Origin: an uncultured Planctomycetaceae bacterium
GTDB taxonomy: Bacteria > Planctomycetota > Phycisphaerae > SM23-33
Assembly (NCBI GenBank): GCA_964557575.1
Contig: CAZLBC010000001.1
Span: 2,296-66,295, forward strand
Reading direction: 5' to 3'
DNA length: 64,000 nucleotides
A program made the translations under genes and the position numbers. Numbering within the stretch: position 1 is the first letter of the stretch; every line of letters begins with the position of its first letter. Under the pieces are notes generated by a model. The model made no database searches. It had not been told where the DNA came from and worked only from the letters and a program-made list of their open reading frames with translations. Of the stretch, positions 6,160 through 62,564 are shown in pieces.

Positions 6160-6362
6160 GGGCGGGCCTCCAAACGGTTGATGTTGCGCACAATCCTGTT
6201 TTATACATCGCCCGGATTGCGGTGTCCACACTCAATACATCGGGCAGGGAGGGCTAATCCGAACATAAACTTTTCGGGATTTTACAAAAAACATCACAAG
6301 TCGCTGGTTCCGTCCGGATTTTCAAACGAACTTGGAAACCCGGACGGACCCTGAAAAAATTT

Positions 6363-6414
6363 CAAGTTTTTTCGAGCCGGGACCGACACAAATTTTTCTT
6401 CGGGGAATTACAAA
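6363..6414. promoter_or_regulatory. promoter-like repeat units in nrdJ / peptidase divergent region
   Basis: TTTTTCGAGCCGGGACCGACAC and AATTTTTCTTCGGGGAATTACAAA. Confidence 0.4.
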
Positions 6415-6486
6415 TTTTTTCTTTGATAGTTTAACGAACCGGGGGTAAACTTGGCAAATGGAAGATTTCCAACTGGAGGAACGACC

Positions 6487-7347: not shown

Positions 7348-7836
7348 TCAGTCCTCGGTTTTTCGATATACCTTTTCCTCGTGGACGTGACCGCCGCTGA
7401 ACGGTTCGGCGGACGGGTCATCCACGGGAAGCGGCGGAAGCATCGACCACCCGTTCGCTTCGTCCATCAGCCACTGGATGTCCCGGGAACACGCGTCACA
7501 CGCGCTGTCGGGGCATATCTTGTACAGGGTGTGAACGACAAACACGTTCGTGTCCGGCTCCCACTGGATGAAGCTCGGCTTCATGACGTAACTGTCGAGG
7601 GGAACCGCGATGTCCATGCGCGGGATGAACGGCATCTGAATCGTTTTTGAAAATCGGAATTGTTCTTCGATCGGGCGCGACGCGCCCTTCAAAATCTCCA
7701 TGTTCTCCCGGTACGTATCCTCGTCGAGATCGCCTGTTTCCCGGAGCTGTTCGAGTTGCGCCTTGTTCGACGCTTGCAACACCGGGTGCATTCCCCCGGT
7801 GTTGATAACGTGAAGCATGATTTGAACCGTGTGCAT
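7348..7836 (-). CDS. hypothetical Cys-rich protein
   Basis: ORF 7348..8208 trimmed to Met125 behind TAGGAGG. The conserved CCGATAAC..GGGTAGGAGG motif lies upstream. Its stop and the stop of the plus gene form the palindrome GAGGACTGATCAGTCCTC. Confidence 0.5.
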   Translation of the reverse strand: MHTVQIMLHVINTGGMHPVLQASNKAQLEQLRETGDLDEDTYRENMEILKGASRPIEEQFRFSKTIQMPFIPRMDIAVPLDSYVMKPSFIQWEPDTNVFVVHTLYKICPDSACDACSRDIQWLMDEANGWSMLPPLPVDDPSAEPFSGGHVHEEKVYRKTED

Positions 7837-27971: not shown

Positions 27972-28625
27972 TCACTTCTTCTCGAACCAAACCGCTCCGT
28001 TGCCCCCGTCGACGGTGTTCAGCAAAACCTCGCCGAAATACTCGGCGACCGCCTTGCGACAACCCGCGAGGTTGTAATCGTCTATGATCACTATACCTCC
28101 CGAACTGACAAACGGGTACAGGTGTTCGAGGCAGACAAGCGTCGAAGAGTACAAATCGCCGTCCAGCCGCAGCAACGCAATCGGATCGCCGTCCCACAAC
28201 GGAACGGTGTGCTGAAACCATCCCTTGTGATACTGAAGAATTTCCTCCGGCACGCCCCACCGATCCATGAGGCGTTGAACGCCTTCCAACGAACAAACGG
28301 AGTGCCCCGAGGACACGAGTCTTCCGGCCGCGTCGGGAGCCTTCGGTCCGATTCCCGGCTGCTGGTCGTCTTCGGGACCGGCTTCGGGGATTCCCTCGAA
28401 CGAGTCGAACAGGTGAAACTTTCGCGGAGGACCGTCAGGGTCCAGTCCCATCTTCGCCAACGCCATGATCGCAACCTGCGCGCCGCGATAAACCCCGCAC
28501 TCCACAAAGTCTCCCGGAACGCCGTTCTTCAGAACACGCTCGGTCATTTCATGCGTGTGGCGGTACACCGGAGGAGGCGTCAACGCGTTGTTCATGACCA
28601 AGTCTACGATATCTTGCTTCTTCAT
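27972..28625 (-). CDS. TylF/MycF-family SAM-dependent O-methyltransferase
   Basis: GDFVECGVYRG, LFDSFEG, LRLDGDLY and GGIVIIDDY motifs. AAGGAAG RBS. Confidence 0.7.
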   Translation of the reverse strand: MKKQDIVDLVMNNALTPPPVYRHTHEMTERVLKNGVPGDFVECGVYRGAQVAIMALAKMGLDPDGPPRKFHLFDSFEGIPEAGPEDDQQPGIGPKAPDAAGRLVSSGHSVCSLEGVQRLMDRWGVPEEILQYHKGWFQHTVPLWDGDPIALLRLDGDLYSSTLVCLEHLYPFVSSGGIVIIDDYNLAGCRKAVAEYFGEVLLNTVDGGNGAVWFEKK

Positions 28626-29200
28626 TCTGCGGTCTTCCTTGCTATCAAAACCGGAGGATTCTGATGTTCGTGTTCCGGAAATTCAAACCACCGGGAAAGT
28701 TTATCCCGCCACCACGCCATGGGGTGAACGGTCAAATGCAGGTTCTCCACGCCTTCCGGCGCGGGCGTCGAAGCGTAATGGGTCGCGATCGTCATGAACA
28801 GCATGCCGCCCGGTTTCAACTTGTCGCTCCACGTTTCGAACGTCGGTTCGACGTCGAACTCCCGAAGATGCTCCAGCATGTCGAACGATGTGATGGCGTC
28901 AACGCGCCCGGGTACCGCGTCCAGATTCCACGCGCCTCCGTGCAAAAACGTTATTCCCGCAGGAACCGGATCGTGCCGATGTACGTCGACTCCGTACAAC
29001 CGAACAACATTCGCGTCGAACATCTTGAGAAAGTTGAACCGTCCGCAACCGCAGTCGATCATCGAAGGATTGTCGCGGTCCGACAGAAACCGGGATACGG
29101 ACGGCTGCAGTTCGCCGCCGTGATTCGTCGTTCCGTACTGTGGGTTTTCAGCATACACCTCGTCATACACGCGCCGGTAAAACGCTTCGTTCGCGCTCAC
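28622..29200 (-). CDS. class I SAM-dependent methyltransferase
   Basis: GTG start after GGAGGA. Motif I IDCGCGRFNFL; also DAITSFDMLEHL and LKPGGMLFM. Confidence 0.6.
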   Translation of the reverse strand: MSANEAFYRRVYDEVYAENPQYGTTNHGGELQPSVSRFLSDRDNPSMIDCGCGRFNFLKMFDANVVRLYGVDVHRHDPVPAGITFLHGGAWNLDAVPGRVDAITSFDMLEHLREFDVEPTFETWSDKLKPGGMLFMTIATHYASTPAPEGVENLHLTVHPMAWWRDKLSRWFEFPEHEHQNPPVLIARKTAE

Positions 29201-29946
29201 AAGTATTTCCTCCAGTCAACGGAAGGAAATACCTTCAGTCGCCCTCCCGTGCCGTTAAGTATCGTCATTTGAGGATTGGCGTCAGCCAACTTGGCCCAGT
29301 GTTTTAATGAAACTTCCAACGCGAGGTCGGTTGTCAATTTCTCGCCGTTCTCCTCTTTCTCGTACTGACGCGCCCGCGCTTCCATCCAAGGAAGAAGCCA
29401 CGCGTCTTCAGGCTGTCCGGGAAATTCGTAGAAGTATTTCTTTCCGTCCTCTACTTGACAGTCGTTTCCAAGAAGGATTATCGGACTGCACCCGAGAATG
29501 GCGGCGAAATGAACCGCGCACTGAATGGAAGAGTGCCCGTATATGAGATTCTTCGCGGAGGGGTCCATCAGCAGGGTTTCGTGAGTGCTGTCCGCGAACG
29601 CGTACAGCAAGTACCTGTACTGTGGTCGGTAAACTCCTCCCCACCAGTCAACGCACTGAATGTTTTGCGTCGCCATGACAATATCACAGTTCGCCCACCG
29701 AACCGTTTGCCAATGCTTTCGCCAGATTACCCGCCAGTCGCTTGAAAAGAAAAAAGGCGCGCTCGGAAACTTTACGATCGCGCTGTTCACGGCGATGACC
29801 GGTTTTCCCTTAAACGCATCTTGCGGAATGCTTCGAAGGCTCGGACCCGACGCCGCGACAAAACCGGGTTGGCCCTTGTACTGTCCGCGCACCGCGTGGA
29901 ACGGGTCGTTTTTATTATAAAAATCCGCTATCGAAAAAGGTTTCAT
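29197..29946 (-). CDS. DUF115/MptE-like (Maf-type) glycan-modification protein
   Basis: PVIAVNSAI...GHSSIQCAVHFAAILGCSPIILLGNDCQ resembles the 6-hydroxymethylpterin-diphosphokinase-like fold found in motility-accessory-factor glycosylation proteins. Confidence 0.45.
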   Translation of the reverse strand: MKPFSIADFYNKNDPFHAVRGQYKGQPGFVAASGPSLRSIPQDAFKGKPVIAVNSAIVKFPSAPFFFSSDWRVIWRKHWQTVRWANCDIVMATQNIQCVDWWGGVYRPQYRYLLYAFADSTHETLLMDPSAKNLIYGHSSIQCAVHFAAILGCSPIILLGNDCQVEDGKKYFYEFPGQPEDAWLLPWMEARARQYEKEENGEKLTTDLALEVSLKHWAKLADANPQMTILNGTGGRLKVFPSVDWRKYL

Positions 29947-30641
29947 TCCGGAACTTGCCCCATCCCTTGGTTTACGAAAAGAACGTGATCGGCGACTTCG
30001 GAATCCGGCGACGCGTAGACCATTTTAGACTTGTCGCTGTCTATCCAGTGCACGCCCATTCGCGCAGTTACAACGCTCATCGCGGTCTGATCATGCCGAT
30101 GGCCAAGCACGCGCGGATCGCTCGAACAAGAACCGTCGTTGTTGTTCCACGGACCCGGGAAGATGTTGCCATCATTCCCCATCTCGATCATCGTGTCAAG
30201 AAACGCGTTCGCCTTGTCGTTTCGAAAGTCAAGACCGACGATGCACCCCATCAAGTCCGTCATTTCCATGGCTTCGTCCCGGGTCAAACCAAGACGCTCC
30301 AACGCGGCGTCGTGGCACCACTGGCCGACTTTCCACCCGTTGTACTGAAAATACCATCCGGTCTTATCGATGTATTCCAGTATCGGGTCGATCGGCTTCA
30401 TGACGGCGATCGCCGAGTCGAGCCAAAGCACGACGTCGTGCCCGTTCTCCTTTGCAATGCGGATTGCGTGGAACTTGAACGCGTACGGCGACGCTTCATG
30501 CGTCGGACTCCCCGGAGGAAACTCGTTGGTCCATTTAAGGAGCGGAACTTCGGGAGAGTGACGATTGAGCGTTCGTTCGAGTCTTCGCTGCCCTCTCGGG
30601 TACCAGCCCCCGACCGCGACGTTGACAACAACGGGATTCAC
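29943..30641 (-). CDS. putative glycosyltransferase
   Basis: GTG start after AGGAGA. Only weak similarity to nucleotide-sugar transferases. Confidence 0.4.
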   Translation of the reverse strand: MNPVVVNVAVGGWYPRGQRRLERTLNRHSPEVPLLKWTNEFPPGSPTHEASPYAFKFHAIRIAKENGHDVVLWLDSAIAVMKPIDPILEYIDKTGWYFQYNGWKVGQWCHDAALERLGLTRDEAMEMTDLMGCIVGLDFRNDKANAFLDTMIEMGNDGNIFPGPWNNNDGSCSSDPRVLGHRHDQTAMSVVTARMGVHWIDSDKSKMVYASPDSEVADHVLFVNQGMGQVPE

Positions 30642-30651
30642 GCTTGTTCTC

Positions 30652-32910
30652 CTATTCGTGTCTGCGCGTCCGTCTGGACGACTTGCGATCGTGCGGGTCC
30701 TCCCGTTCGGCCTTCACGCCTTCCGTGCGAAAAGACGACCGATGGTGCGACGGCGGACCGTCCTCGTTTTTCTCGGCGGTTTCCCGCGCCTGCTGTTCCC
30801 GGATTTGCTGGCCGAAGACGGACGCCGCTCCTTCCGGCGTCGGCCGGTAAACGTACAACGGAACGGGGATGAACCGTTCGGTCTTGATCATTCCCGATTT
30901 CGCCATGCGCTCCGAATAATCGGCGTCCTCGCCGAAACTGGCGTTAATGAAGGGGAACTTGATCGCGATCGACCGGCGAACGGCGTTCCAGTGGTTCGGC
31001 GGCCGGAAGTACATGTGATCGTTCTCGAAATAATGGTCGTACATCAGGCTGTGAATGAACGGCTTGGGCGGGTCGGACATCATCATTCCGCCGAACGTGA
31101 CCGCGTCCACGTCTCCGGCGGCCAACGCGCCGAGGATCGTCTCCATGTACTTGTCAGAGACGTCGTCGTCATCGTCGAGGAACATGATGTATTCCCCGCG
31201 AGCGCGTTGAATCAAATTCGTTCGCTTCTCGCCGATCGTCCGCTGTCCGGAGTCCTCGTCGATCAGAATTTCAACGCTCCGTTCCATCCGGATCGCGCGA
31301 ATCTGGTCCGCGATCTTCCCGCACAACGCCGTGCGCATGTCGCGCCGCTTTACCATCGTCGGCATCAGGATCGATAAGAGCATGCGCGGCTGTACGCCGC
31401 CGAAATCCTCGGATTTTCGCCGAAGGTAGACCGGTTGGTCGATGTGGTAAAACTTGGAATCCCGGGAGTACAACTCGTCGGTAATCTCCGCGCCGTGCGT
31501 GGACGGGTGGACGTGGTGAACAACCGACCAGTCAATGTACGCCTGCCGGGCGAGGAGACCGCCGACGTCCGTGAACTCGTTGTCGCACCACATCCCCTGA
31601 TACGCGGGATTGTACGCGTACCCGAAGCGGTCGTAATACTTCTTTCCGACGATGACCTGCGTGTTCAACCGCTTGCCGACGCCGCCGTCGTGAAACCAAA
31701 GGCTCCCGTCGGTATCCGGGAAATACTTCTCCATGGCCATGAGGATCGCGTCGTCCCACCCGGCGAACTGGGGAATGACGTCGTCTTGCGCGAGCATCAT
31801 GACGTCCCACGGTTCCGTAACGTCGTTGATCCCCCGATTGAACGCGTCGATCTTGTTCCTCGACGAACCGCCGACGATCGTGATCTCGCATCCGTACGCT
31901 TCACACGCGGCGACGCGCTGCAGGATTTCCTCGGTCATGGTTTCATCGTCATCGTCGTACACGACGAGAAAGTGAACCTCGTTGCGCCGCGAAAGCTGCC
32001 TGCAGTATTTTTTCTCGAACACGTCGAGGAACTTCTCCGGACGTGAACGCGTCGGAAACTTGACCAAGAGCCGGTGCATCCGGCGAACGCCGCCGCCGAG
32101 TTGCAAGAAGTTGGACGCCGGACGTTCCGGCGCGTTGCCTCGTCCGACCATGTTCTCGATGTTGTGGCGCGCGAAATCGTTCCGGTTCGGTTCGTGCGCT
32201 TTGTCGTACAAGAGACTGTCGAGGTAATCCGCCGGGTTTTCCTCGGACTTCAGTTTCGATATCGGCACGACCGTCTTTCCGAACGACACGGCCTTGGACA
32301 CGGGACGTTCCGTTTCCCGCGCCGGATCGTAGAACACGACACGGGAACACATGATTGCCTTGTCAATGTCGTCCGGCATGCAGACCGAATAGTTCACCGG
32401 GAACTGCGACAGCGTGTCCACGACATCCTTGGTCACCGGGGGGAGGATCGTGAACTGCTGCCGGTTCTTCAAAAAAGCCTGAATCAACTTCAGCCATCCG
32501 GGGTCGTCCACCGGAAGGCCGTACACGCACACTTCGGATGACGGAACATTGAAAGACACCGGTGCCCACGCGCTGTTTCCGACCACGCTGCGAAGCGTGT
32601 CGACGTCGCTTTTCACGGCCGTGATGATCCCGGCGAACCGGCCTTCCTTGGCAGCCGTCATGGAACGGATCAGGAGTTTCCGATCGACGGACGCGACCAG
32701 TCCGAACACGCGCCCCGGAAACTGTTTGCACAAGTACCGGGTGCCAAACGCGTCCGGGTCGTCGGCGACGAAAAACCAGTCGTACCGGGACAGGCTGAGG
32801 TGCATCGCCCGGTCGATCGGGTAGAAATCGAACCCCTGCGCGACGGCGAGGGCCTCGGCATACGCGTAAGCGGCTTTCGTCTTTGTCGACGCGATTACAC
32901 AGGCTTTCAT
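30652..32910 (-). CDS. multidomain glycosyltransferase (two GT-A/GT2-like DxD domains)
   Basis: LSILMPTMVKRRD...IMFLDDDDDVSDKY and VHFLVVYDDDDETMTEEIL show GT2 DxD signatures. 752 aa. Confidence 0.7.
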   Translation of the reverse strand: MKACVIASTKTKAAYAYAEALAVAQGFDFYPIDRAMHLSLSRYDWFFVADDPDAFGTRYLCKQFPGRVFGLVASVDRKLLIRSMTAAKEGRFAGIITAVKSDVDTLRSVVGNSAWAPVSFNVPSSEVCVYGLPVDDPGWLKLIQAFLKNRQQFTILPPVTKDVVDTLSQFPVNYSVCMPDDIDKAIMCSRVVFYDPARETERPVSKAVSFGKTVVPISKLKSEENPADYLDSLLYDKAHEPNRNDFARHNIENMVGRGNAPERPASNFLQLGGGVRRMHRLLVKFPTRSRPEKFLDVFEKKYCRQLSRRNEVHFLVVYDDDDETMTEEILQRVAACEAYGCEITIVGGSSRNKIDAFNRGINDVTEPWDVMMLAQDDVIPQFAGWDDAILMAMEKYFPDTDGSLWFHDGGVGKRLNTQVIVGKKYYDRFGYAYNPAYQGMWCDNEFTDVGGLLARQAYIDWSVVHHVHPSTHGAEITDELYSRDSKFYHIDQPVYLRRKSEDFGGVQPRMLLSILMPTMVKRRDMRTALCGKIADQIRAIRMERSVEILIDEDSGQRTIGEKRTNLIQRARGEYIMFLDDDDDVSDKYMETILGALAAGDVDAVTFGGMMMSDPPKPFIHSLMYDHYFENDHMYFRPPNHWNAVRRSIAIKFPFINASFGEDADYSERMAKSGMIKTERFIPVPLYVYRPTPEGAASVFGQQIREQQARETAEKNEDGPPSHHRSSFRTEGVKAEREDPHDRKSSRRTRRHE

Positions 32911-33712: not shown

Positions 33713-35455
33713 TTATTCGGCGGTCTGCTCCGAGGTCTTGTCGGTCTTGTCGGACTTCTCTTTCTCTTTCTCCGCACGTTTGCGCTCTTCTTCGAGGGCG
33801 TCAAGCCGTTCGGCGAACTCCGCGCGGAACTTCACGCGTTCGTCGCCCTGCCGCAGGTCCGATTCAACCATTTTCATCAGGTCTCGCGGGAGCTGCAGTC
33901 CGACATTCCGAGACTCGACGCGCCATTCGACATTCCGTTGCTGACCCTCTTGGATCGCCTGCGCGACTTTCGGGTGCGTCATCACGTTTTCGGTCGCTTC
34001 CTCGGGAGACGCCCCGGTATTCCGAAGGTCGTGTAGCGCGTCGATGACGGTCTCGGTAAACGACTTCGTGAATATCGGAAACTCCGTAAGAACGACTTCC
34101 AACCACGCGGATTCATCGACCCCGAGCGTCGAACCGATCCGCGCGAGCGTCTCCATGGACCGCAGCCGCGCCTCGAACGTTTCCAGCCGGTATAGCTCTT
34201 CCAACGCGCTGGGCGGAACCATGCACAGGGTAAACGAATTTTCCTCGATGAGCGGATCGACGCCTCTGTACTTCAAATCCATCATCGCCAAACGGGCGAC
34301 CTCTGCAAGAAAAATCCTCTGGAGATTCGCGGCTTGCCGCGCGAACCTCGAATCCTGCTGAGACGGGCTTCGTTCGAAATTCGCTTGCCCCTCGTACCCG
34401 AAGTACCCCTTCGGCGCGCGCAACGCGCCGAACATGCGGTCGAGGAACATTTCGAGGTCCCGCATGTCGTCGACGCCCTTGGTTCCGGGAAGCACTTCAA
34501 CGTCCGTTTGATCCGCTTCGCGGAACCAGATGAAGAAATCCTCGTTTTCAGCCAGCAACGTGTACACGCTGGCGAAGTCGACGTTCGTCGGGTCGAAGTT
34601 ATAATCGCGCTTGACGTTCCGACGGTACTTCTCGATTTTCATTTCGGCGTCCACCGCGCCGAGACCGGTCACATCGATCTTGTGCTTGTAACGGTCGGGG
34701 TTTCGAAGCAACCGCATCAACGCGACCTTGTCCTCCATCATCTGAACCTGACGCCAGATGCGGCGGGCACCGAACAGCGTGGACGTTCCGTAAATTCGCC
34801 GCACGCTTCGCCCCAGTTTCCGGAAATGCAGGAAATCCCACGGCTTGGACAGAAGCTGAATGTTCTTCTGCTTGCTGACTTGCATGCCGTAGTTGTAGGT
34901 TTCCTCCGACTGGTACGGCGTGAAACCGCGAAGACGTCCGTACTCGTCGTGTACGCGGGAAATCGTCGCCGGGTGGTAGTTTATCAGCCGCTGAACGCCT
35001 GACTTCGGCTCCGCCAGAATGAACTCGAACTCGTCGCCGTACTTGGCCAACTGCCGCATGATCGGCTGCGCCAATTCGTCGGAAAGTCCGGTTTCGGCCA
35101 ACATGCTGTTGACCATGGACTCGACGTCCTTGTTGTGGCTCTCGCACCATACGATGACTCCGCGCCGGGCGTCGCGCTGCGTGGCGTCTTCGGTCAATTG
35201 TTCGAGGAACGCGAAGATCGTCGGGTCCAATTCCATCTCATCGTACAGGGCGTAGAGCAACGCCCGCTCCTCCTCGAACTGGAGGAGTTGGTTGTACATC
35301 ATCGACATCGGGTTCGGCACGACTCCGGTCGGCGTCTCGACGCCCATCGCGCCGGGGAACGGGAGCCGAACCGGTTGACGCGAAAGCGGCTTGTCGTAGC
35401 CGTAAAGCTGCAGAAGCGACGGTTCCGGAGAAAGAGAATATCTTTTGACAACCAC
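33713..35455 (-). CDS. portal protein (putative)
   Basis: 580-aa gene starting 3 nt after the terminase stop. GTG start after AGGGAGG. Call rests on size and position. Confidence 0.5.
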   Translation of the reverse strand: MVVKRYSLSPEPSLLQLYGYDKPLSRQPVRLPFPGAMGVETPTGVVPNPMSMMYNQLLQFEEERALLYALYDEMELDPTIFAFLEQLTEDATQRDARRGVIVWCESHNKDVESMVNSMLAETGLSDELAQPIMRQLAKYGDEFEFILAEPKSGVQRLINYHPATISRVHDEYGRLRGFTPYQSEETYNYGMQVSKQKNIQLLSKPWDFLHFRKLGRSVRRIYGTSTLFGARRIWRQVQMMEDKVALMRLLRNPDRYKHKIDVTGLGAVDAEMKIEKYRRNVKRDYNFDPTNVDFASVYTLLAENEDFFIWFREADQTDVEVLPGTKGVDDMRDLEMFLDRMFGALRAPKGYFGYEGQANFERSPSQQDSRFARQAANLQRIFLAEVARLAMMDLKYRGVDPLIEENSFTLCMVPPSALEELYRLETFEARLRSMETLARIGSTLGVDESAWLEVVLTEFPIFTKSFTETVIDALHDLRNTGASPEEATENVMTHPKVAQAIQEGQQRNVEWRVESRNVGLQLPRDLMKMVESDLRQGDERVKFRAEFAERLDALEEERKRAEKEKEKSDKTDKTSEQTAE

Positions 35456-35458
35456 GGC

Positions 35459-38400
35459 TTACGCCTCCCTGTTCTGAATCATTTCCCGGACCTTTTTAAG
35501 CGTCGACTCCTGATAGGTCATCGCGCCGTCGACGGTCGGAGTCAACAGTGTACCGACCTGCTCGTCCTGCATGCAATTCCAAACCGCGCCGCACACGGAG
35601 TCTGAAACATCCTTGCTGTTGTGCACAAAAACCCCGACCGAAAGAGCGAAATTATTCCACTCGTCGACTTCAAGGTCGTAGACGGGAACCGGCTCGTCCA
35701 GAGTAACCGGAATAACGTACCGGACTCGATGGTTGTCGCCGGTTTCATCAGCCAAGTACCGGTCCCGGCTTTCGTACCCGCCATTACGTGGAAACTGACG
35801 AGTTATCGGCATCAACCGGTCCCGCACGGGTACGAGGTCTTTGGCGCGCTTATACGAACCGTCTCGGAGCATCCATAGGTGTTCCGGAGTGCACCGAGCA
35901 ACCGCGCCGTTGTCGAGTATCACGTCAATCAGGTTCTTCGTGGTCTTCGTTTTACGCCCGCGCGCCCAACCGGCGACGATACTCCCGTCAGGCCGTGCGG
36001 AATAGACCCATCCTTCCCAACCGTCCAATTCCGAAATCCGGCGACACGTCCCGTCAAGCAGCGGGATTCGGGTGTCACCCGTAAAACAACCGCCCGGAGG
36101 GTGATCAATCTTGTCTTCGTCAGTCAACTCCAACGCGAGCAACTCGTCCTCAAGAACCTCGTGTTTCGGCCATGTAATCCGGTTCTCGTTCAGGATTGTT
36201 TTGAAAACATAATACTGTTCCGGACGCCTGTCGAGCGTCAGATACCCGGCTTCGATCCGGGACTTCTTCAGGTATTGAATTTCCCCCTGACCGGCCGGAG
36301 AGTCGTACGTTACTTTTCGGAGGACGAAGTTTTTCTCTTTCAGCCACAGGATGAAATCGCGGATTTTCTCCCAGTCCACTTCGTCCGTGTCAGGCGTGAT
36401 CTGAAGCGCGAAGTCGACCTCTATCGTCAACTCCGTACGCCGGTCGTAGTGTCCGGTGTCGGTACGGACCTGCCGCGAAACGGCTTTCGTCGGGTGGACC
36501 ATCGCGACGCCGACGGCGTCGCCGTTTCGCGAAATGTCAACATGGATGTACCGGGGGGAGTGCGGCATGCGTTTCGGGACGTCGCGGGAAGATCGAACCG
36601 TAAGGAACTCTTCGCGGAGAACGTAGTCCTGAATGCGGTCCGGGCGTTGAAGGTCGATCTTCATCGGACAGTCCCAGCGCGCTCCCATCCCGGCAACGAA
36701 CGGGTGCGGAAGAACGGCCTCCCCGTCGTTCTCCCACTCGACGGAAGCCTCTATAATCGGCTGGCCGCGAGGGAAGAACGGATTGATCGCTTCCGACGGT
36801 ATCCCGGCGATGTCGCGCAGGGAACCGATCGGGTCTTCGTTGAACGCGCGGAAATCCTCCACCGGGACGTCAATAGTGCGAACGCCGCGCGGAGGATTTC
36901 CTCCCTTCTTGATGCGAAACTGTCCGAATCCAAGGTTTTCCACGCCGTCGAGACAATGCGGCTTCACGAATTTGTTGCCGACAACAAATCGAAACGTCAA
37001 CCCCGATTCCCGCCGTCCGGATTTCGGCTGAAATTCCCACTGCGGGCCGCCGACGACGTGCACGTTCCGGTTGTTGGCAACCTCGCGCTTCCGAATTTCC
37101 AAGTACGAGTTTGACGCCTTCGTGGACGAAATGTGAATGATCATGCCGGACGTCGCGAACCGCGATTCCATGCGCCGGGAAGTTTGCTGGACGAGGCTGT
37201 GGACCTTCCCCTTCTCTTCCAACGTCTTGGCCTTCTTCTGCTTCTTCGTCTGCATGTGGAAGTTCATTTCGTCGATGGCCAGACAAAACAGGTTGTGTCC
37301 AAGAACGTGAAAAGCAGCGGAACCGATCATAAACTTAATATTCTTGGGGAAATGCAGTTCGCTGTACTGCTCCTTGTACCAGAACTTCTCCTTGAAATAC
37401 GGCGACTGGTCCAGAAGACCGAGAAGCGTCGACATTCCGACATCCGTCAATCTCAACGTCGCGTTGTAAATACCGAAGACGATCGGAGACCCCTTGGACA
37501 ACCCGTGGTATCCGGCGGGATCGCGCAGGCAGGACAACTGATAAAGTTTGAAGATCATCATGACCATGGAATTGAACGTGTTGTGACTCATGAATCCGTC
37601 GGAAACGTAACTCGGGTCGTCCTCCACCGACAAGTCGTAGCAGTGCGCGTGATCGTCGTCCACGGTTTCGACCGTATCAAATAGCAGGTGTCCTCTGGCG
37701 ATAGCGCACAGAACGTCAGGAAGCGTTCCCGCCGCATCCAAGACCTCGTTCAAGAGCCGTCTGGTTGCACGTTGTTTAACGAGGCGTCTCAGGAGCCGGG
37801 ACGGTCCCTTGCGCTTTTCGTACCCGTCTGGAGCCTCTCCGCGTTTGTGCCGGGGCTGCATCTTTCGAAGTTCAGCGACGCATGTCTCAGGAATCCTGAA
37901 CGAAAACGAGTGATCACAGTTTCGGTTCCACCGGGAAGCCCGTTCGATCAAAGCCGCTTGTTTCCGGTCGTGGTAGTGACCAATCTGCGCGGCGAACTTT
38001 GCTTGAGAGTCCGTACCGACAACCCGAACGGTATACGCCCGCCCTGTAACGTAACGAGTGCCTGCGTCAGTATACGCGGCTTCCTTTGACGTAACCGAAC
38101 AGTACATTCCGAGCGACGTCAAAAGAACCCGAACCTGACGCGCTAATTGCTCAGACGTTGTCGTGAGGGAACAGTCCGAATCGCCGCTGTACCCGTCGCC
38201 CGAGAACAAACCCCTGAGATACGCGCAAACTCCCGCTCGGCTGCTTCTGAAAACAACTGGAGGAATCGTGCGGGTCCCGCTTTTTTGACCTTCGCCTTCT
38301 CGAAGAACCGAATCCGGTCTTGGTTTAATCGTGAACTCTTTTGAAAACTCAGACCGTGCATCTCGGCTTCGTTCGTGAACCCACTCGATTCCAAGTTCTT

Positions 38401-39172
38401 CCCGAACGAAATCAAAAAGGTTCAAAACATAATCGTATTCCTCTTCGTGTACGCTTACTCGTGCATACCTGACGTCTGGTGTCCAACAACCTTCAGCCGT
38501 TTCCCAACCGAGGGCTTCCATCGCTCCTTCCGAAAAACCTGAATTTGTCGGGAAAGCGTACGGGTATTCCAGAACACAATCGCCTTCGACCAAGTCTTCC
38601 AACGCCACCCATTCGACGTCAAGCCCTCGAAGAACACGAATACGGTGGTTCGGTCGGCCTTCAAATACGTGTCCGTGTTTTGTAGTCACTTTCTTAGTTG
38701 AAGTCAGTCCTTCGTTGTGATACTCGGAAATCGGACAGTACCCTGACTCAGTCAGAACCTCGACGTTCATCCTGTTATCGACAATATCTTCGATTGGAAT
38801 CATCCCGCGAGACGTCGAGATCAGCGTACCTCTTCGGCTACACTTCCCGATTCCAATTCCGCCATCGATGATCACTTCGTTGATCTGATTCCTCGGGTCG
38901 AACGTCGTCAACAATTCCTTTTGCCATCGCGGCCAGATGTCCACGCCGCCGAGGTAGTACGGATTCGTGATAAACTCGTCGATTCCGACCGGAGGCTCGT
39001 CGTAGTCCATCTGCGTAATAAAATCCCGGGACAGCGACTTGCCGCTGTTCCGCAGCGATTCTTCAATTCCGCGAATCGCCCACGTCTTTTCACTGTCCGA
39101 CAACGAATCGAAAAACCGAAGGACTTCCGAGTCGAGCTTCGCCAGCGCAGCGCGAATTTGGTCGACGTTCAT
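35459..39172 (-). CDS. terL: terminase large subunit containing two inteins
   Basis: Walker A GGIGIGK-[intein]-TFNSM reconstitutes GIGKT. ATPase and nuclease regions are present. Position is upstream of the portal gene. Confidence 0.8.
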   Translation of the reverse strand: MNVDQIRAALAKLDSEVLRFFDSLSDSEKTWAIRGIEESLRNSGKSLSRDFITQMDYDEPPVGIDEFITNPYYLGGVDIWPRWQKELLTTFDPRNQINEVIIDGGIGIGKCSRRGTLISTSRGMIPIEDIVDNRMNVEVLTESGYCPISEYHNEGLTSTKKVTTKHGHVFEGRPNHRIRVLRGLDVEWVALEDLVEGDCVLEYPYAFPTNSGFSEGAMEALGWETAEGCWTPDVRYARVSVHEEEYDYVLNLFDFVREELGIEWVHERSRDARSEFSKEFTIKPRPDSVLREGEGQKSGTRTIPPVVFRSSRAGVCAYLRGLFSGDGYSGDSDCSLTTTSEQLARQVRVLLTSLGMYCSVTSKEAAYTDAGTRYVTGRAYTVRVVGTDSQAKFAAQIGHYHDRKQAALIERASRWNRNCDHSFSFRIPETCVAELRKMQPRHKRGEAPDGYEKRKGPSRLLRRLVKQRATRRLLNEVLDAAGTLPDVLCAIARGHLLFDTVETVDDDHAHCYDLSVEDDPSYVSDGFMSHNTFNSMVMMIFKLYQLSCLRDPAGYHGLSKGSPIVFGIYNATLRLTDVGMSTLLGLLDQSPYFKEKFWYKEQYSELHFPKNIKFMIGSAAFHVLGHNLFCLAIDEMNFHMQTKKQKKAKTLEEKGKVHSLVQQTSRRMESRFATSGMIIHISSTKASNSYLEIRKREVANNRNVHVVGGPQWEFQPKSGRRESGLTFRFVVGNKFVKPHCLDGVENLGFGQFRIKKGGNPPRGVRTIDVPVEDFRAFNEDPIGSLRDIAGIPSEAINPFFPRGQPIIEASVEWENDGEAVLPHPFVAGMGARWDCPMKIDLQRPDRIQDYVLREEFLTVRSSRDVPKRMPHSPRYIHVDISRNGDAVGVAMVHPTKAVSRQVRTDTGHYDRRTELTIEVDFALQITPDTDEVDWEKIRDFILWLKEKNFVLRKVTYDSPAGQGEIQYLKKSRIEAGYLTLDRRPEQYYVFKTILNENRITWPKHEVLEDELLALELTDEDKIDHPPGGCFTGDTRIPLLDGTCRRISELDGWEGWVYSARPDGSIVAGWARGRKTKTTKNLIDVILDNGAVARCTPEHLWMLRDGSYKRAKDLVPVRDRLMPITRQFPRNGGYESRDRYLADETGDNHRVRYVIPVTLDEPVPVYDLEVDEWNNFALSVGVFVHNSKDVSDSVCGAVWNCMQDEQVGTLLTPTVDGAMTYQESTLKKVREMIQNREA
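35618..36088 (-). mobile_element. intein 2 (mini-intein) in terminase C-terminal domain
   Basis: CFTGDTRIPLLDG start, block B CTPEHLWM, ends VGVFVHN|S. 157 aa with no endonuclease domain. Confidence 0.7.
37580..38842 (-). mobile_element. intein 1 (LAGLIDADG-type) in terminase P-loop
   Basis: CSRRGTLIST start, block B TKHGHVF, LAGLIDADG-like AMEALGWETAEG and AYLRGLFSGDGY, ends SHN|T. Confidence 0.7.
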
Positions 39173-39173
39173 G

Positions 39174-40241
39174 TCACTCCCCCAGTTGCTTCCTGCGGAT
39201 AATCTTCTTGAGGTGGCGCGGAACCGGCCATTCGAGAAGCATCGAAACGACTTCGTTTATTTCTTGCCAAGTCGCGTCGGGGAACCGCCGCTTCAACCAC
39301 TTCGTATCCGCGCCCAGCGCAGCGAAAGCCCACACCTTGTCCAACCTCGGAACACCTGTCGGAGAACCGACGACGTCCAAAAGCGTGGCGGGGGTGTGCG
39401 ACCGGCAAACGGCGTTCATCCGAAGACTGTGGTGGATCACGTTCGACACCAAGTTGTTCCGTGTCCTCCATTTCTGGACGCGCTGACATCCGCAACCCAT
39501 GACTCGCGCGATTTCGCCGTCCGACCATCCGTCAGCCCACATCTTACGGAAAAACTTTTCGTCCATCCCGAATTTACGCTGCTTCCCGGTCGGAACGCCT
39601 AATTTTCGAAGCCACCGCTTCAACGTGGACTTCGCGACTCCGACGCGTTCCGCGAGTTCCGCGTCGGACATCATCATTCCGCGATCCAAAACCAGTTTCC
39701 TTACCTGCTGCCCCACGGAAACGAACAAAAAGTCCCGGGCCTGCTGCGGGTCGCGGTTCATCCCGAGTTCGGACCGGAGTTTGACAACCGTCGTCTTGGC
39801 GCGTCCCACGGCTTCCGCCAGTTCCCTGTTGCTCAAATGCGGGTTTTCCGTCAGCACCCGTTGTATCTTGTTCCGCAGACGGGTTCGTGCGGCTTTCGAC
39901 CGTTTCGTCGCGACGCCGAGCTTGCGCCGTATGTACGACATCATATCACGCGACACGCCGAGAACCTCGGCTGCTGTTTTACATTTTGCTTTCGGGTTGT
40001 CCGCCATAAACCGCTTGTACCGCTCGCACAATTCGTCCATCTGCGCCGCCGTTCGTTTCGCCGGGCGTCCGACGCGAATGCGAATGACGGATACGTCGGA
40101 CTGGCTGATCATCAAGGCTTCGGCTATTTCAGGGTTCGGGGCGTCCGGGTGTTCATCCAAATAGTCAACCACCGCCTGCCGAAGTCGTTTCGTTTCCGCT
40201 TTCGTGCGACGTTTCTTCTTCTTCTTCTTCTTGCGCGCCAT
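39174..40241 (-). CDS. DNA-binding protein with five tandem HTH repeats (putative terminase small subunit)
   Basis: AGGAGG RBS. N-terminal poly-Lys from a (AAG)n run. Repeated HTH-like units ending ...RKLG or ...ELG. Located directly upstream of terL. Confidence 0.45.
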   Translation of the reverse strand: MARKKKKKKKRRTKAETKRLRQAVVDYLDEHPDAPNPEIAEALMISQSDVSVIRIRVGRPAKRTAAQMDELCERYKRFMADNPKAKCKTAAEVLGVSRDMMSYIRRKLGVATKRSKAARTRLRNKIQRVLTENPHLSNRELAEAVGRAKTTVVKLRSELGMNRDPQQARDFLFVSVGQQVRKLVLDRGMMMSDAELAERVGVAKSTLKRWLRKLGVPTGKQRKFGMDEKFFRKMWADGWSDGEIARVMGCGCQRVQKWRTRNNLVSNVIHHSLRMNAVCRSHTPATLLDVVGSPTGVPRLDKVWAFAALGADTKWLKRRFPDATWQEINEVVSMLLEWPVPRHLKKIIRRKQLGE

Positions 40242-40959
40242 CTTCCGGGGCCTCCTGCACTGGAACGTCAATGACGGGTCCGTCCGGCCCGGCGGAAACC
40301 AAATCGGACCTACCGGCTCCTTCCAAAGCCTTCCAGAACTCGCGCAACCGGTCCCGGGATCGCGGGGATTCCGGAGGTTCGGGCGCGTCGGGATCGTGTT
40401 CGAATATGTTGATAACCGTGTTTGTCTGGTTGAAAAGCTCGTCGACTCCCTTGTTCCGGTCGACGGACATTTTCTTGACGTAGTCCAACGCTTCGCTCAT
40501 CGACTTTTCCATGATCTGGTAGACCTTGGCGAGATTACTGTCGGACATGTCGGCCAAGCGTGCGGGGTCGAGGAGGAGTTCGCGGATGTCTTCCAGTTGT
40601 TCGTACAGCGTGCCGACGGTTTGGATGCGTCGAACGGCAAACAGGTTCAGCGCGACCCGAAATCGCGCGTCGTGGTCCTTCAACAGGTTGTGAATGACCT
40701 GCTGCGCGATGTTGTCGATCTGGTCGTCGGACAGAATATTGCGAACGACGGTGTCCGTAATGGCGGGCATCGAGTCAGGATCGGACAAGTCAAGGAGATT
40801 CAGGTCTTCGCTCGGCGACACCGCACCGTACTTTTCCTGAAACTCCTCCATCGACATCCCGTGCTTCTGCCGGAGATGCGTGTTCGTGATCCGCTTCATC
40901 GACTGCCCGCATATCGGACACTCAATCAGCCTTCGCGCTTTCTTCTTCTTCTTTGCCAT
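40165..40959 (-). CDS. zinc-finger protein (CPICGQ...HLRQKH)
   Basis: Overlaps both neighbours. Both the 3' end and the start are uncertain. Confidence 0.35.
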   Translation of the reverse strand: MAKKKKKARRLIECPICGQSMKRITNTHLRQKHGMSMEEFQEKYGAVSPSEDLNLLDLSDPDSMPAITDTVVRNILSDDQIDNIAQQVIHNLLKDHDARFRVALNLFAVRRIQTVGTLYEQLEDIRELLLDPARLADMSDSNLAKVYQIMEKSMSEALDYVKKMSVDRNKGVDELFNQTNTVINIFEHDPDAPEPPESPRSRDRLREFWKALEGAGRSDLVSAGPDGPVIDVPVQEAPEDGAQEEEEEETSHESGNETTSAGGG

Positions 40960-41564: not shown

Positions 41565-44033
41565 TCAGACCGTTTCGTACGAAGTGATCCCGTCTTCCTT
41601 CACGGCTTTTAGGACGGTGTGAGGGCCGATGATCGCCACGTCTCCCCGGTGCGTGATCAAGATTTTCGTACTGACCGACACATCGCGCAGGAGAAGCTGC
41701 ACAACGCGACTCGCAGCCTCTCCGTCGAGGTTTGACAGGATTTCATCGTAGGCTTCCACGTTGGGCTGCACCGTGCTGGCAGACCGGTTGAGGTCCCGGA
41801 AGGCCAAAAACAGCGCGACGTCGACTTTTCTCCGCTCTCCGCCGCTGGACGCGTCGTAGGAGCCTCCGGCCGTTGAAACGTACAGCGTGATCTTGTCGAT
41901 CAGGTTCTTGTCCTTTTTCTGCCGCACCGGGGACAGCGAAATCTGCGTATGCACGTCGAAAAGGTACGCACAGTGAGCTTTCAACCGCTCGTTCAGGTAT
42001 TGCAACACCGAATCCATCATGAACGACCGGATTCCGGCCAATCCGAAGGACTTCACCACGTATTCGAGGACGTACGCTCGGTCCGTGGCCTCTTTCACCT
42101 TCTCACGGCGGACCGCCACCAGCGAATCGATCTGCTTTATCTGGTTTTCGATCGATTTCACCGTCACGTACGGGTCGGACTCCCGGAGCGTCTTCAACGC
42201 ACCCTCCGTGCGAACGATTTCCGTCGCCAAGTCGCCGGAAACCCGGCGTTTATCCGCCAAAACGGCATCGATGTCGTTCCGATACTTGTCCCGGATTTTG
42301 TACACCTCGCGCAACGACGTTTCAGCGGCGTCCACCTGCGCCTTCGCTTCGGAAACGCTCGTCGCCGACCGGGATTCGAACTCCTCGACCTCCTGATCAT
42401 GGACCGCTTGGACGCGCGCCCGTTCCGCGTCCGCCGCGCCTTGCTCATACGACCGCTTCTGCTGCAAATGGCCTATGCGCCGGTCGATCTCGTCAAGTCC
42501 TTCCGGCTGGCTGTCGGACAAGCGCGCGAGTTCTTCGTTGGCGGCCGCCGTTTCCTGGTCGCGCGCCGCTGTCAACGCGTTGATCGCGTCCACGACGGAA
42601 TTGCGCTCTTCGTGCAGCTTCGCTCGCTCGTCGTTGTGCGCCGCGACGAGCTTTTCGTCTTCGGCGATGGCGGTCTTCGCGGCCTCGATCCTGTTCACGA
42701 TCTCGCAACGCGCCTCGTCCGGGTTCAGCATCTCCGAAATATGCTGACGCATGGACTGAGCCGAAACGACGCCGCCGCACGTCGGACACTTGGAACCCGG
42801 TTCCAGCGTCATCTCCTCGATACGACGATCAAGCGTCGCCAGATCGCTTTCAGCGGCTTGTAAACGGCCTCTGACGGTCATATCGGGTTGGCGCGGGGTC
42901 CAAGCCCGGAGTTGAGCGTCCAACGCGCTGATCCGTTCGTTGTGCGGAGCGACGGATTCGGTTAAATCCGTGTTCGCCTTCGCTATCCGCGCCCGGATTT
43001 CCTCCGCCTTTTGATTGTGCGCCGAGATCGCGGCGTTCCGCATTGCGTTGTCGTTCGCGATCTCGGCGTCAATCGCGGAAACCTTCGACTGAAGCGTGGA
43101 AACGGCCTCGGTCATGTGTCGCCGCTGGTTTTCCATGAGCGCGTTTCGTTGCGCGTTCACCTGATCCTCGACCGTTTGCAAATTTTGCTTCAAGCCTTGG
43201 ATATGCGTGTTCCACCCGTCGATCTGACTATCGTACTGACCGATGTTCGCCGCCTTCTGCTTCTCGGTTTCGGCGATTTCCCTCGACAAGGCGTCGAAGC
43301 CGGTCTGGCGCGTTTGCAGCAACTCGGAAAGACGCGCGATTTCCGTGTCGATCGACGTTTTCTTGAAGTCCGCGTCGACATTTTCCGCTGAAAGCGTGAT
43401 GTTCAACTCCGCCTTCTGATCCTCCAAAGCGACAATGGCGGATTCTTCCTGCGCTACAGCGGCTTTTACGGCGTTCAACCGGTGCTTGGCCTCGTCGTGA
43501 GCTTCCGCGAAGACGTTCGCTCCGATAAGCCCCTCGATGAACTCCTTCAGTTCCCGATCCGACATGTCCGTGTACCGGAATTGGAATCCCTGCCCGATCA
43601 AAACGAGCCGGGCGAACGCGTCGGCGTCCATTCCGAGTTCCCGCGTCACGACGTTCTGCGTAACGCGCGGGTCGGTTCCGGAAATGTCGGTCCCGTCCAG
43701 CACGGCGATGAACGCATGCTTGTGCTCCTTGTGCTTGCGATACCGGTCCACGACGAGTTCGCCGTTGGCGACCTGCACGACAACGCGGACGTGGCAGTTC
43801 TTCTTGGTCTTCTTGTTGACGACGTTGTCGACGTACCGAACTCCGCGCAGCGTCTTTCCGTAAAGACACCAATACAACGCCTCAATCATGGCGGACTTGC
43901 CGGAACCGTTGGACTCCGCGCTCGGATCGTCCCGATTCTCGCCGGTCACGACAAGCAGTCCCCGGTTTTCGACGTCGAGGTCCATCGACCCGATGGACAT
44001 GAAATTTTCAGCTTGGATTCTTTTGAATTTCAT
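41565..44033 (-). CDS. sbcC: SbcC/Rad50-like recombination ATPase
   Basis: N-terminal Walker A NGSGKSAMIEAL, a long coiled coil, zinc hook CPTCGG, and C-terminal SGGERRKV with Walker B ILITH. Confidence 0.75.
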   Translation of the reverse strand: MKFKRIQAENFMSIGSMDLDVENRGLLVVTGENRDDPSAESNGSGKSAMIEALYWCLYGKTLRGVRYVDNVVNKKTKKNCHVRVVVQVANGELVVDRYRKHKEHKHAFIAVLDGTDISGTDPRVTQNVVTRELGMDADAFARLVLIGQGFQFRYTDMSDRELKEFIEGLIGANVFAEAHDEAKHRLNAVKAAVAQEESAIVALEDQKAELNITLSAENVDADFKKTSIDTEIARLSELLQTRQTGFDALSREIAETEKQKAANIGQYDSQIDGWNTHIQGLKQNLQTVEDQVNAQRNALMENQRRHMTEAVSTLQSKVSAIDAEIANDNAMRNAAISAHNQKAEEIRARIAKANTDLTESVAPHNERISALDAQLRAWTPRQPDMTVRGRLQAAESDLATLDRRIEEMTLEPGSKCPTCGGVVSAQSMRQHISEMLNPDEARCEIVNRIEAAKTAIAEDEKLVAAHNDERAKLHEERNSVVDAINALTAARDQETAAANEELARLSDSQPEGLDEIDRRIGHLQQKRSYEQGAADAERARVQAVHDQEVEEFESRSATSVSEAKAQVDAAETSLREVYKIRDKYRNDIDAVLADKRRVSGDLATEIVRTEGALKTLRESDPYVTVKSIENQIKQIDSLVAVRREKVKEATDRAYVLEYVVKSFGLAGIRSFMMDSVLQYLNERLKAHCAYLFDVHTQISLSPVRQKKDKNLIDKITLYVSTAGGSYDASSGGERRKVDVALFLAFRDLNRSASTVQPNVEAYDEILSNLDGEAASRVVQLLLRDVSVSTKILITHRGDVAIIGPHTVLKAVKEDGITSYETV

Positions 44034-47493: not shown

Positions 47494-47582
47494 TGGCGGA
47501 GAGCGGAGGACACGATCCTCACACCGTATCGGTGCAAACGACTTTCGAGGCCGCTCCGGCGCGCCTGTCCGGTTCACTCTCC
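47494..47582 (-). tRNA. tRNA-Ser (anticodon CGA), class II
   Basis: Acceptor GGAGAGU/GCUCUCC. Loop CUCGAAA; long variable arm CACCG-AUA-CGGUG. Same unusual T-arm. Confidence 0.6.
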
Positions 47583-59386: not shown

Positions 59387-59444
59387 AAAAAAGCCCTCCG
59401 TTTCGCAACCAAGTATGCGACGGAGGGCCTCACGTGTCAAATAA

Positions 59445-59515
59445 TGCGTCGGACGGGGATCGAACCCGTTACCACGTTTTTAGAGAACGCCGCCTATCCA
59501 TTCGGCTTCCGACGC
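59445..59515 (-). tRNA. tRNA with anticodon CUA (amber-suppressor-like)
   Basis: Acceptor GCGUCGG/CCGACGC, A73. Anticodon stem GCGUU/AACGU with loop CUCUAAA (U33, anticodon CUA, purine 37). T-arm ACGGG-UUCGAUC-CCCGU. Confidence 0.5.
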
Positions 59516-59523
59516 AATTCGAC

Positions 59524-61463: not shown

Positions 61464-62564
61464 TTATTGCGCGCCTTTTCTACGATTACAATCCGCGCAA
61501 AGCATACGTCCATTATTCGTATCCGTCTTGCCGCCTTGAGACCATGGAGTAATATGGTCGGCGTGCATTTCCGCCAGATCGCATTCTTTATCACATTGCG
61601 CGCATTGGCCGCTTTGTTTCTCATACATCGTGCGTCGTTGCTTCTTATCGAAAGCTCGAATGTTGAGATGTTTTACTTCTCCCGTGAGAACATACGCATA
61701 AATCCCGCGTTTATTCGTCACGTCTTCATCAGCCATCAACACGGAAATCCGATCTTCCAACTCTTCAGCATCAAGCGTGTCATTTTTGTGAGCTTCGTAC
61801 ATTTCATTCCACGGCAAGCCCTTCATCTCTTTGCGGTATTCCGTAAATACCGTTTGGACCCAGCGTATCACTTTTTTGAAGTAGTTCCATAGAGAATTTG
61901 CATTTTGCCGGTGCTGATGGGTCGCCATGTAAGATCGAATGTGCATGTCGTTCGGCTGATTCTCTTTCGTCGCCCACTTGATGGCCAATTCAAGCAATTC
62001 TTGCCGAATCGGACTGCCTTTGACGTAGGCCCCTCCAAGTTGATAAGCCGCACAGCTTCTCCGAGAAAACCGTCTCTTCGCGTCGGACAACCATGGACCA
62101 GTATATACAGCGTTGCGTAGTTCTTGTTCAGTTAATGGTTCTCCGGCAATGTTAACGGTCTTGAACCATTCCAATAACTCGGTATGACTTCCCGAGCACT
62201 GATAAATCATGAGTTCGTAGTCAAGAATGCGGGACTGGGTCTCTTCACCCAAGTTGGCAAAGTTCATTGCATTGACTTGGAACATGCCGGAAACGTATTG
62301 GCAGATTGAAATAGTGCGTTGCTGTCCGTCGAGGATTTCGAAAGTGTCATCATCATGTTTGGCCCAGTACATGATATTAAGGGGCAAGCCTTTGAGCACG
62401 GAGTCAATAACCGCATTACGTTGGGCGGCGTCATAAACGAACTCTCGTTGATATGGCGGTCGGATGTCTAACAGGCCGTTGTAGCCTTTGACTCCTTCTT
62501 CCGCGTTATCTTCGTACCCGGCCACAACTTCGCGAATCGGGATATTGTGCAGTTCAACTCTCAT
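61464..62564 (-). CDS. DUF262 + HNH (GmrSD-like type IV restriction endonuclease-like)
   Basis: N-terminal ILDGQQRT (DGQQR, DUF262/ParB-like NTPase). C-terminal HADHITPWSQGG...N...CADCNRRKG (HNH/DUF1524). Low GC compared with its surroundings. Confidence 0.7.
   Translation of the reverse strand: MRVELHNIPIREVVAGYEDNAEEGVKGYNGLLDIRPPYQREFVYDAAQRNAVIDSVLKGLPLNIMYWAKHDDDTFEILDGQQRTISICQYVSGMFQVNAMNFANLGEETQSRILDYELMIYQCSGSHTELLEWFKTVNIAGEPLTEQELRNAVYTGPWLSDAKRRFSRRSCAAYQLGGAYVKGSPIRQELLELAIKWATKENQPNDMHIRSYMATHQHRQNANSLWNYFKKVIRWVQTVFTEYRKEMKGLPWNEMYEAHKNDTLDAEELEDRISVLMADEDVTNKRGIYAYVLTGEVKHLNIRAFDKKQRRTMYEKQSGQCAQCDKECDLAEMHADHITPWSQGGKTDTNNGRMLCADCNRRKGAQ

Follow-up and report, generated by a model that had tools for sequence, protein, structure and literature searches.

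What is encoded by a reading frame in which the two halves of a Walker A motif are held apart by 421 amino acids, and a nuclease motif by a further 157? The question is raised by a gene on contig CAZLBC010000001.1, assembled from an uncultured Planctomycetaceae bacterium, of which a stretch of 64,000 nucleotides (hereafter the window) was analysed. The gene had been predicted to encode a terminase large subunit (TerL) carrying two inteins, and the open reading frame exists as claimed, specifying 1237 amino acids on the minus strand (Table 1), ending in TAA and reading normally in the standard code. It is very probably the TerL gene of a tailed phage, producing a 1237 amino acid precursor with two canonical class 1 inteins; in silico removal of both leaves a protein of 659 amino acids.

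Evidence that the inserts are inteins

Two stretches of the precursor are matched by the Pfam profile Intein_splicing (E = 7.5e-16), and two by each of the NCBIfam models intein_Nterm (TIGR01445) and intein_Cterm (TIGR01443); the NCBIfam models of the intein-containing GyrA and RtcB proteins also match. Both segments hold the complete class 1 splicing set, consisting of Cys1, the block B His, the penultimate His, the terminal Asn and a Thr or Ser at the +1 position, and when profiled the boundaries of both fit the intein blocks. The first segment (intein 1), which was proposed to be a LAGLIDADG intein of 421 amino acids that splits the GKT of Walker A, has exactly this length and the expected junctions, GIGIGK/CSRRG...GFMSHN/TFNS (slashes mark junctions throughout), with Cys111 as its first residue and Asn531 as its last. 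It is inserted between the Lys and the Thr of the motif (GGIGIGK/T). The second (intein 2), described as a mini-intein of 157 amino acids in the C-terminal nuclease region, was likewise exact in length, junctions and domain, being bounded by DHPPGG/CFTGDTRIPLLDG...VFVHN/SKDVSD with Cys1029 first and Asn1185 last. Blocks F and G read HCYDLSVEDDPSYVSDGFMSHN in intein 1, which terminates in SHN/T with a Thr at +1, and VYDLEVDEWNNFALSVGVFVHN in intein 2, which terminates in VHN/S with a Ser at +1. Block B of intein 2 is TPEH, and the Intein_splicing profile covers this segment completely (profile positions 1-155 of 155, amino acids 1036-1185).

A search with the 659 amino acid spliced product as the query retrieved 202 relatives. 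The closest of those free of inteins are 657-675 amino acids long and share 48-65% identity with the query at 98-100% query coverage, while seven of ten relatives aligned to the full precursor are continuous across both junctions. As related terminases lack both segments, these are not native terminase sequence. The absence can also be seen at the DNA level in a contig from Logan SRR10018917 (L002), on which the TerL gene at positions 4254..7553 encodes the relative P0001. All three extein segments share 88-92% nucleotide identity between L002 and the window, with 96% amino acid identity across the exteins, and the gene order on L002 matches that of the window: an SbcC-like gene, two small genes, a gene with multiple helix-turn-helix (HTH) domains, TerL and portal. 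Both window inteins are absent from L002, where site a reads GGGAAA/ACTTTC and site c reads GGCGGC/TCGAAG without interruption. Instead, L002 has an insert of 440 amino acids at a third site upstream of Walker B, where the window is uninterrupted; the junctions of this insert are of the intein type (FMIG/C...TSN/SAAFHVLG), but its recorded Pfam domains include neither an endonuclease nor an intein. The window and L002 can hence be regarded as near-identical alleles with different intein content, providing ready substrates for homing or splicing assays. Base composition gives no sign of recent arrival of either intein, the GC content being 53.4% in intein 1, 57.5% in intein 2, 55.5% in the extein and 57.9% in the window as a whole.

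These observations bear directly on whether the segments might be something other than inteins, namely insert domains specific to this lineage of TerL, introns, or free-standing endonuclease genes that happen to be read through. Such explanations were rejected on the basis of the profile matches and the presence/absence polymorphism, and can be given almost no credence: the HINT profile matches are full length, the Cys...His-Asn/Ser or Thr boundaries are exact and in frame, close relatives lack the segments cleanly at the DNA level, and the same intein lineages are found at the same sites in distant members of the family.

Identity of the host protein

The spliced extein is not easily recognised by domain searches. 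A scan of the local Pfam copy up to E = 10 found no family, nor was there any match in the sequences of the PDB when the single spliced extein was used as the query; a profile built from 41 sequences retrieved only noise from the same database (E at least 0.4, mostly P-loop matches to NLRP3). The precomputed Pfam assignment of the TerL relatives (P0001-P0256) is PF27249 (MJ0330_N), which is not matched by the window extein in the local scan. As the Pfam and PDB sequence searches were empty, the identity of the protein is drawn from PHROGs, tblastn, the predicted fold and gene order. Searching with the spliced extein by tblastn identified 361 phage records, 255 of them with a query coverage of 80% or more; in most of the phage records listed the matched gene is annotated as a terminase large subunit. 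The best matches are to the Maribacter phages Colly and Molly (E = 4e-56, 95% coverage), and extein identity to the window is below 60% in every phage record. The PHROG family of TerL, phrog_2, matches the C-terminal half of the extein (E = 1.5e-9).

An AlphaFold model of the spliced extein, built on the family alignment, has a mean pLDDT of 85.8. When this was compared with the PDB using Foldseek, the top 21 matches were all full-length TerLs, those of HK97, D6E, T4 (gp17) and Sf6 (gp2), with E values of 5e-13 to 1e-9; lower matches were to isolated nuclease domains (G20c, with a target TM-score of 0.65) and ATPase domains (T4 and P74-26). Global TM-scores between the model and the PDB terminases are low (0.27-0.44), probably because the N-terminus is extended by a long segment and the domains are oriented differently. 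The tblastn, PHROG and fold results and the adjoining portal gene therefore agree with one another in identifying the host protein as TerL, as originally proposed. Annotation should describe the gene as encoding a two-intein TerL precursor whose mature product has 659 amino acids, rather than a 1237 amino acid protein of unknown function; the spliced extein has no local Pfam match, and the full precursor matches intein domains only.

The catalytic motifs expected of a terminase can be recognised once the exteins are joined (residue numbers of TerL motifs refer to the spliced exteins). Walker A becomes GIGKT, corresponding to QLGKT in T4 gp17, and Walker B is LAIDE, corresponding to IYIDE. In the nuclease domain, comparison was made with T4 gp17 and with the TerL of Thermus phage P23-45, which is closely related to the enzymes of P74-26 and G20c that have been crystallised; the catalytic residues are D401, E458 and D542 in the former and D294, D347 and D429 in the latter, and the letters at these positions were confirmed in the sequences. 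The first Asp lies in YIHVD458ISRNGD (YIATLD401CSEGRGQD in T4, IGAD294FGKNQD in P23-45), the second acidic residue in VTYD536S (VYIE458L and VVAD347T) and the third Asp in IDH603PPGG-SKD610VSDSV (YHDD542LVMSL and GHDD429IVMSL). Within the 41-sequence family alignment (A2), G104, G109, K110 and E214 of the ATPase are invariant in 41 of 41 sequences, as are H456, D458, D536, H603, D610 and D613 in the nuclease. D458 ends a strand (453-458) of the model, D536 follows just after another (530-535) and D610 opens the C-terminal helix (610-624), so that the predicted arrangement of these three residues is RNase H-like. Motif similarity and invariance suggest that D610 is probably the third catalytic Asp. 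Intein 2 lies only two residues upstream of it, inside the motif that contains the invariant H603, D610 and D613.

Probable histories of the two inteins

The point at which intein 1 interrupts the gene, between the Lys and Thr of the P-loop, is a 'classic' location for intein insertion according to Kelley et al. 2016 (PMC5050341). Homologous LAGLIDADG inteins occupy the same Lys/Thr position in the relatives P0003 and P0006, and also in P0155, a more distant TerL considered further below. Intein 1 shares 43-45% identity with its site-mates, which is below the 60-64% identity between the corresponding exteins; this lower similarity fits either a longer residence of the intein at this site or faster drift. 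A further relative, P0113, has an intein at the same site with only 25% identity. The endonuclease of intein 1 is matched by Pfam LAGLIDADG_3 (E = 5e-11, amino acids 316-398) and Hom_end (E = 7e-4), and in the PDB by PI-PkoII (E = 1.2e-5). Because both LAGLIDADG motifs (LGWETAEG and LFSGDG) retain their acidic residue, intein 1 is probably still mobile, with an endonuclease that may remain active and able to invade intein-less alleles. The uninterrupted site a of L002, ATTGGCATCGGGAAA/ACTTTCAATTCCATG, is such an intein-less allele and represents a natural substrate sequence for the endonuclease.

No endonuclease domain was found in intein 2 by the Pfam scan or by alignment with P0009, a relative that carries a homologous intein at the same Gly/Ser position, and a PDB sequence search with intein 2 gave zero matches. 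The splicing domain of the P0009 intein is 71% identical to intein 2 over all 157 residues, whereas the exteins of P0009 and the window are only 51% identical. This difference fits the transfer of the intein between TerL lineages after their divergence. Where intein 2 has a gap in the alignment, the P0009 intein has an extra segment of approximately 160 amino acids containing an HNH_3 domain, such that the two inteins constitute a pair with and without an endonuclease. The similarities of sequence fit a history in which the endonuclease was lost in the lineage of the window following this transfer, loss rather than gain of the HNH domain being the direction that we infer.

Splicing of the precursor and its possible control

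In the mechanism envisaged, each intein would fold into a HINT domain after translation and then excise itself. An N-S acyl shift at Cys1 would be followed by trans-esterification onto the +1 residue (Thr for intein 1, Ser for intein 2), cyclisation of the terminal Asn and an O-N shift generating the new peptide bond. Splicing of intein 1 would restore the Walker A P-loop, GGIGIGK-T, and that of intein 2 the nuclease motif, IDHPPGG-SKDVSD; the product would be a 659 amino acid TerL with the packaging ATPase in its N-terminal part and an RNase H-like nuclease in its C-terminal part. With the inserts placed as they are, the precursor would be expected neither to bind ATP properly nor to cut DNA. 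An insert of 421 amino acids in the P-loop would not be compatible with the binding of ATP, nor one of 157 only two residues from a catalytic Asp with metal-dependent cleavage of DNA, and it can soundly be inferred, as originally proposed, that both splicing events are needed for a fully active motor. At the DNA level the inteins would be selfish mobile elements, with intein 2 a putative derivative of an HNH-bearing intein that, having lost its endonuclease, would now be inherited passively.

The location of both inserts exactly within catalytic motifs also invites the suggestion that they act as conditional switches in addition to being selfish elements, with splicing held back until a signal such as a change in redox state or temperature, the presence of DNA or a late-infection cue, and the ATPase and nuclease thereby activated on schedule. 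Conditional splicing has been put forward in the case of the phage Mic1 TerL, which also has two inteins (PMC7156551), and discussed for TerL inteins generally (PMC5050341), and the persistence of intein 2 without an endonuclease could mean that it has been retained for a reason other than homing. However, insertion into catalytic motifs is expected of selfish inteins in any case, since these are conserved targets for homing and resist imprecise deletion. Furthermore, no sensor is indicated by the sequence, the tested TerL inteins of mycobacteriophages splice fast and constitutively (PMC5050341), and 93 of the best 150 representatives of the TerL family have no insert. That L002, with 96% extein amino acid identity, lacks both inteins implies that neither is needed for the life cycle, and a role as conditional switches seems very unlikely. 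A more elaborate proposal, in which each intein forms a post-translational gate of its own, intein 1 controlling the packaging ATPase and intein 2 the nuclease, with differing splicing conditions and with the mini-intein kept by selection, would allow the phage to control the order of its motor and nuclease activities; it is distinctly unlikely.

Several points weigh against the interpretation of the gene as a functional TerL precursor that removes two self-splicing inteins. Splicing of both inteins in this particular protein is predicted from their sequences, and an exact look-up of the 1237 amino acid precursor in the public collection found no record, meaning that there is no independent copy to confirm the two-intein assembly. 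Block B of intein 1 is GRPNH, in which the His is kept and the usual Thr is replaced by Arg, yet this looks like a trait of the lineage rather than decay: the same Arg is common to the inteins of P0003 and P0006, and P0155 also has Arg at this position (GREDH). In addition, comparisons of the family alignment with T4 gp17 (E = 0.096, with the Walker A and B columns correctly paired) and with P23-45 TerL (E = 0.29, Walker A only) are not significant, and for this reason the equivalence of the nuclease residues rests on motif comparison, joined in the case of D610 and the catalytic Asp of T4 and G20c by its invariance.

The missing block B Thr and the lack of an identical protein elsewhere on record, along with the loss of the endonuclease from intein 2, are also what might be expected if one or both inteins were relics no longer able to splice, in which case the terminase would be disabled and the phage decaying or defective. 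However, mini-inteins usually splice well even when they have no endonuclease, and neither intein here lacks any essential splicing residue. The reading frame is unbroken over its 3.7 kb, the extein keeps every position that is invariant in the family, and the surrounding packaging genes are also intact, which makes relic inteins highly improbable. A pseudogene was rejected on similar grounds, given the intact frame, the catalytic residues and the neighbouring packaging genes.

Inteins across the TerL family

The interpretation of the gene as an intein-bearing TerL can be set in the context of its family, for which an exhaustive profile search identified 7747 representatives (E ≤ 0.001). Inserts of at least 90 amino acids were mapped in the best 150 of these, of which 93 are uninterrupted, 48 contain a single insert and nine contain two; inserts of intein size are thereby present in 57 of the 150. 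They cluster at profile positions of approximately 105, 110-120, 195-225, 355, 520 and 585-590, mostly within the ATPase domain, and intein signatures are evident at the junctions displayed for the nine two-insert proteins and for twelve long homologues. P0149 and P0211 probably contain three inserts each, two of which flank the Walker A loop. That two-intein TerLs are rare in the family had been suggested by their absence from the first 120 word-indexed homologues, a view overturned by the nine found among 150. The family is thus rich in inteins, with inserts at six or more profile positions, and offers natural material for the study of intein biology.

One member of the family, the metagenomic TerL P0155 (1115 amino acids), has homologous inteins at both of the sites occupied in the window, with junctions GK/C...SHN/T and G/CFSGD...VFVHN/SKD, although the part that aligns with the window protein is only approximately 33% identical to it. 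The intein at the first site of P0155 is shorter, at 285 amino acids, and has lost the acidic residue of the second LAGLIDADG motif, while its mini-intein is 139 amino acids in length, compared with 157 in the window. In Bacillus phage vB_BceM-HSE3 (MF418016.1; positions 1495..4457 of L004), the annotation divides a TerL of the same family between two genes: gp054 comprises the N-terminal part of TerL and an N-intein (DVF/CLTGSTKI), and gp056 opens with a C-intein ending VVVHN/CAMLDEIEF, with an open reading frame of 90 amino acids between them. The site lies just before Walker B, and the arrangement represents either a split intein or one interrupted by its endonuclease region.

Comparison with known intein-bearing terminases

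Terminases with two inteins are already known in other phages, and the gene in the window is a further well-preserved example. The TerL of the Microcystis cyanophage Mic1 has a large endonuclease-bearing intein with a +1 Thr in its ATPase domain and a mini-intein in its nuclease domain (PMC7156551), the same overall architecture as in the window. However, the nuclease-domain intein of Mic1 has a +1 Cys, where intein 2 of the window has a +1 Ser, and since all of the phage records stay below 60% in extein identity to the window, Mic1 TerL would appear to be at best a distant relative.

In mycobacteriophages, TerL is the most frequent intein host, with seven insertion sites, all in the ATPase domain (PMC5050341). 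Splicing has been shown experimentally at sites b, c, e, f and g, and endonuclease activity at b and c, with TerL1-a outside the assayed set (PMC5050341). The TerL1-a inteins share the P-loop site of intein 1, whereas the second intein in the window is in the nuclease active site. The host proteins also differ, in that the mycobacteriophage TerLs belong to the Pfam families terminase_1 and terminase_6, while the local Pfam copy contains no TerL model that matches the window extein. A third comparison is with the crAss-like Delta-group genome OBYQ01000140, in which two inteins divide TerL into three fragments (PMC7886860). These are of the Hint-Hop type in a gene with TAG recoding, in contrast to the LAGLIDADG intein and mini-intein of the window, which are encoded in the standard code. 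The current understanding of such genes is left unchanged by this additional well-documented case, the value of which lies in annotation and in the matched alleles with and without inteins.

Gene neighbourhood

The positions of TerL, its component parts and the genes around it are collected in Table 1. The portal gene starts four bases past the TerL stop. On the other side of TerL, the multi-HTH protein may be the small terminase subunit (TerS), although its TerS matches in PHROGs are faint (E = 2e-4 to 8e-4). Between positions 47494 and 63991 lie 23 tRNA genes, all on the minus strand. One of them, at 59444..59516, has a CUA anticodon (labelled tRNA-Pyl by ARAGORN) and is a potential amber suppressor; TAG is the stop codon of only four of the 39 long minus-strand reading frames checked in the window.

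Table 1. Features of the terminase gene and its surroundings (positions in the window; amino acid ranges are those of the precursor)
Feature	Position	Strand	Details
TerL precursor gene	35459..39172	minus	1237 aa, ATG start, TAA stop; open reading frame list and translation
N-extein, aa 1-110	38843..39172	minus	aligns with intein-free relatives from the first Met
First half of Walker A, GGIGIGK, at end of N-extein	38843..38863	minus	
Intein 1, aa 111-531	37580..38842	minus	421 aa, class 1
LAGLIDADG homing-endonuclease core of intein 1	38186..38512	minus	Pfam and PDB matches
LAGLIDADG motif 1 of intein 1, LGWETAEGC	38486..38512	minus	
LAGLIDADG motif 2 of intein 1, LRGLFSGDGYS	38186..38218	minus	
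Middle extein, aa 532-1028	36089..37579	minus	starts at the Walker A Thr, ends IDH603PPGG
Walker B, LFCLAIDE, in middle extein	37268..37291	minus	
First nuclease motif, YIHVD458ISRNGD, in middle extein	36518..36550	minus	
Second nuclease motif, KVTYD536S, in middle extein	36299..36316	minus	
Intein 2, aa 1029-1185	35618..36088	minus	157 aa, class 1 mini-intein
C-extein, aa 1186-1237	35462..35617	minus	begins SKD610VSD613SVCGA, helix with probable third catalytic Asp
Portal protein gene, T4 gp20 type	33713..35455	minus	directly downstream of TerL; Pfam Portal_T4 E = 2e-39, PHROG portal E = 1.3e-33
Multi-HTH DNA-binding protein	39174..40271	minus	directly upstream of TerL; many HTH Pfam matches
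Glycosyltransferase and methyltransferase gene block	28622..32910	minus	just downstream of the portal region
SbcC/Rad50-like ATPase	41565..44033	minus	PHROG E = 3.9e-83
GmrSD_N and HNH endonuclease protein	61464..62564	minus	

Other inteins in the window

At least two inteins are present in the window beyond those of TerL. One is an insert of approximately 443 amino acids with an HNH_3 domain, at about nucleotides 3646..4974, in the gene for a class II (B12) ribonucleotide reductase (2527..6231, minus strand). This insert lies between the Pro and the active-site Cys of the NPCGE motif (GLNP/CMTGDT...), and its N-terminal half is related to intein 2 of TerL (E of approximately 1e-9). The provisional C-terminal boundary, ...VWVSSKQ/CGEV, would have this intein end in Gln rather than His-Asn.

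The second is a LAGLIDADG insert of 348 amino acids at about nucleotides 15014..16057, within an SNF2 helicase gene (13616..16477, minus strand), where it separates the Lys and Thr of that protein's own P-loop (GLGK/QQPVDTHV...AILTHN/TIQ). This intein has no N-terminal Cys, Ser or Thr and follows the Trp/Cys/Thr pattern of class 3, with a Trp after the block B His (EHLW), a Cys in block F (VCISV) and a terminal Thr-His-Asn (THN). Over its full length it is 35-37% identical (E = 1e-45 to 1e-49) to the Walker A inteins of the TerL proteins P0032, P0045, P0121 and P0137, a similarity which implies that one intein lineage occupies the P-loops of two different ATPases.

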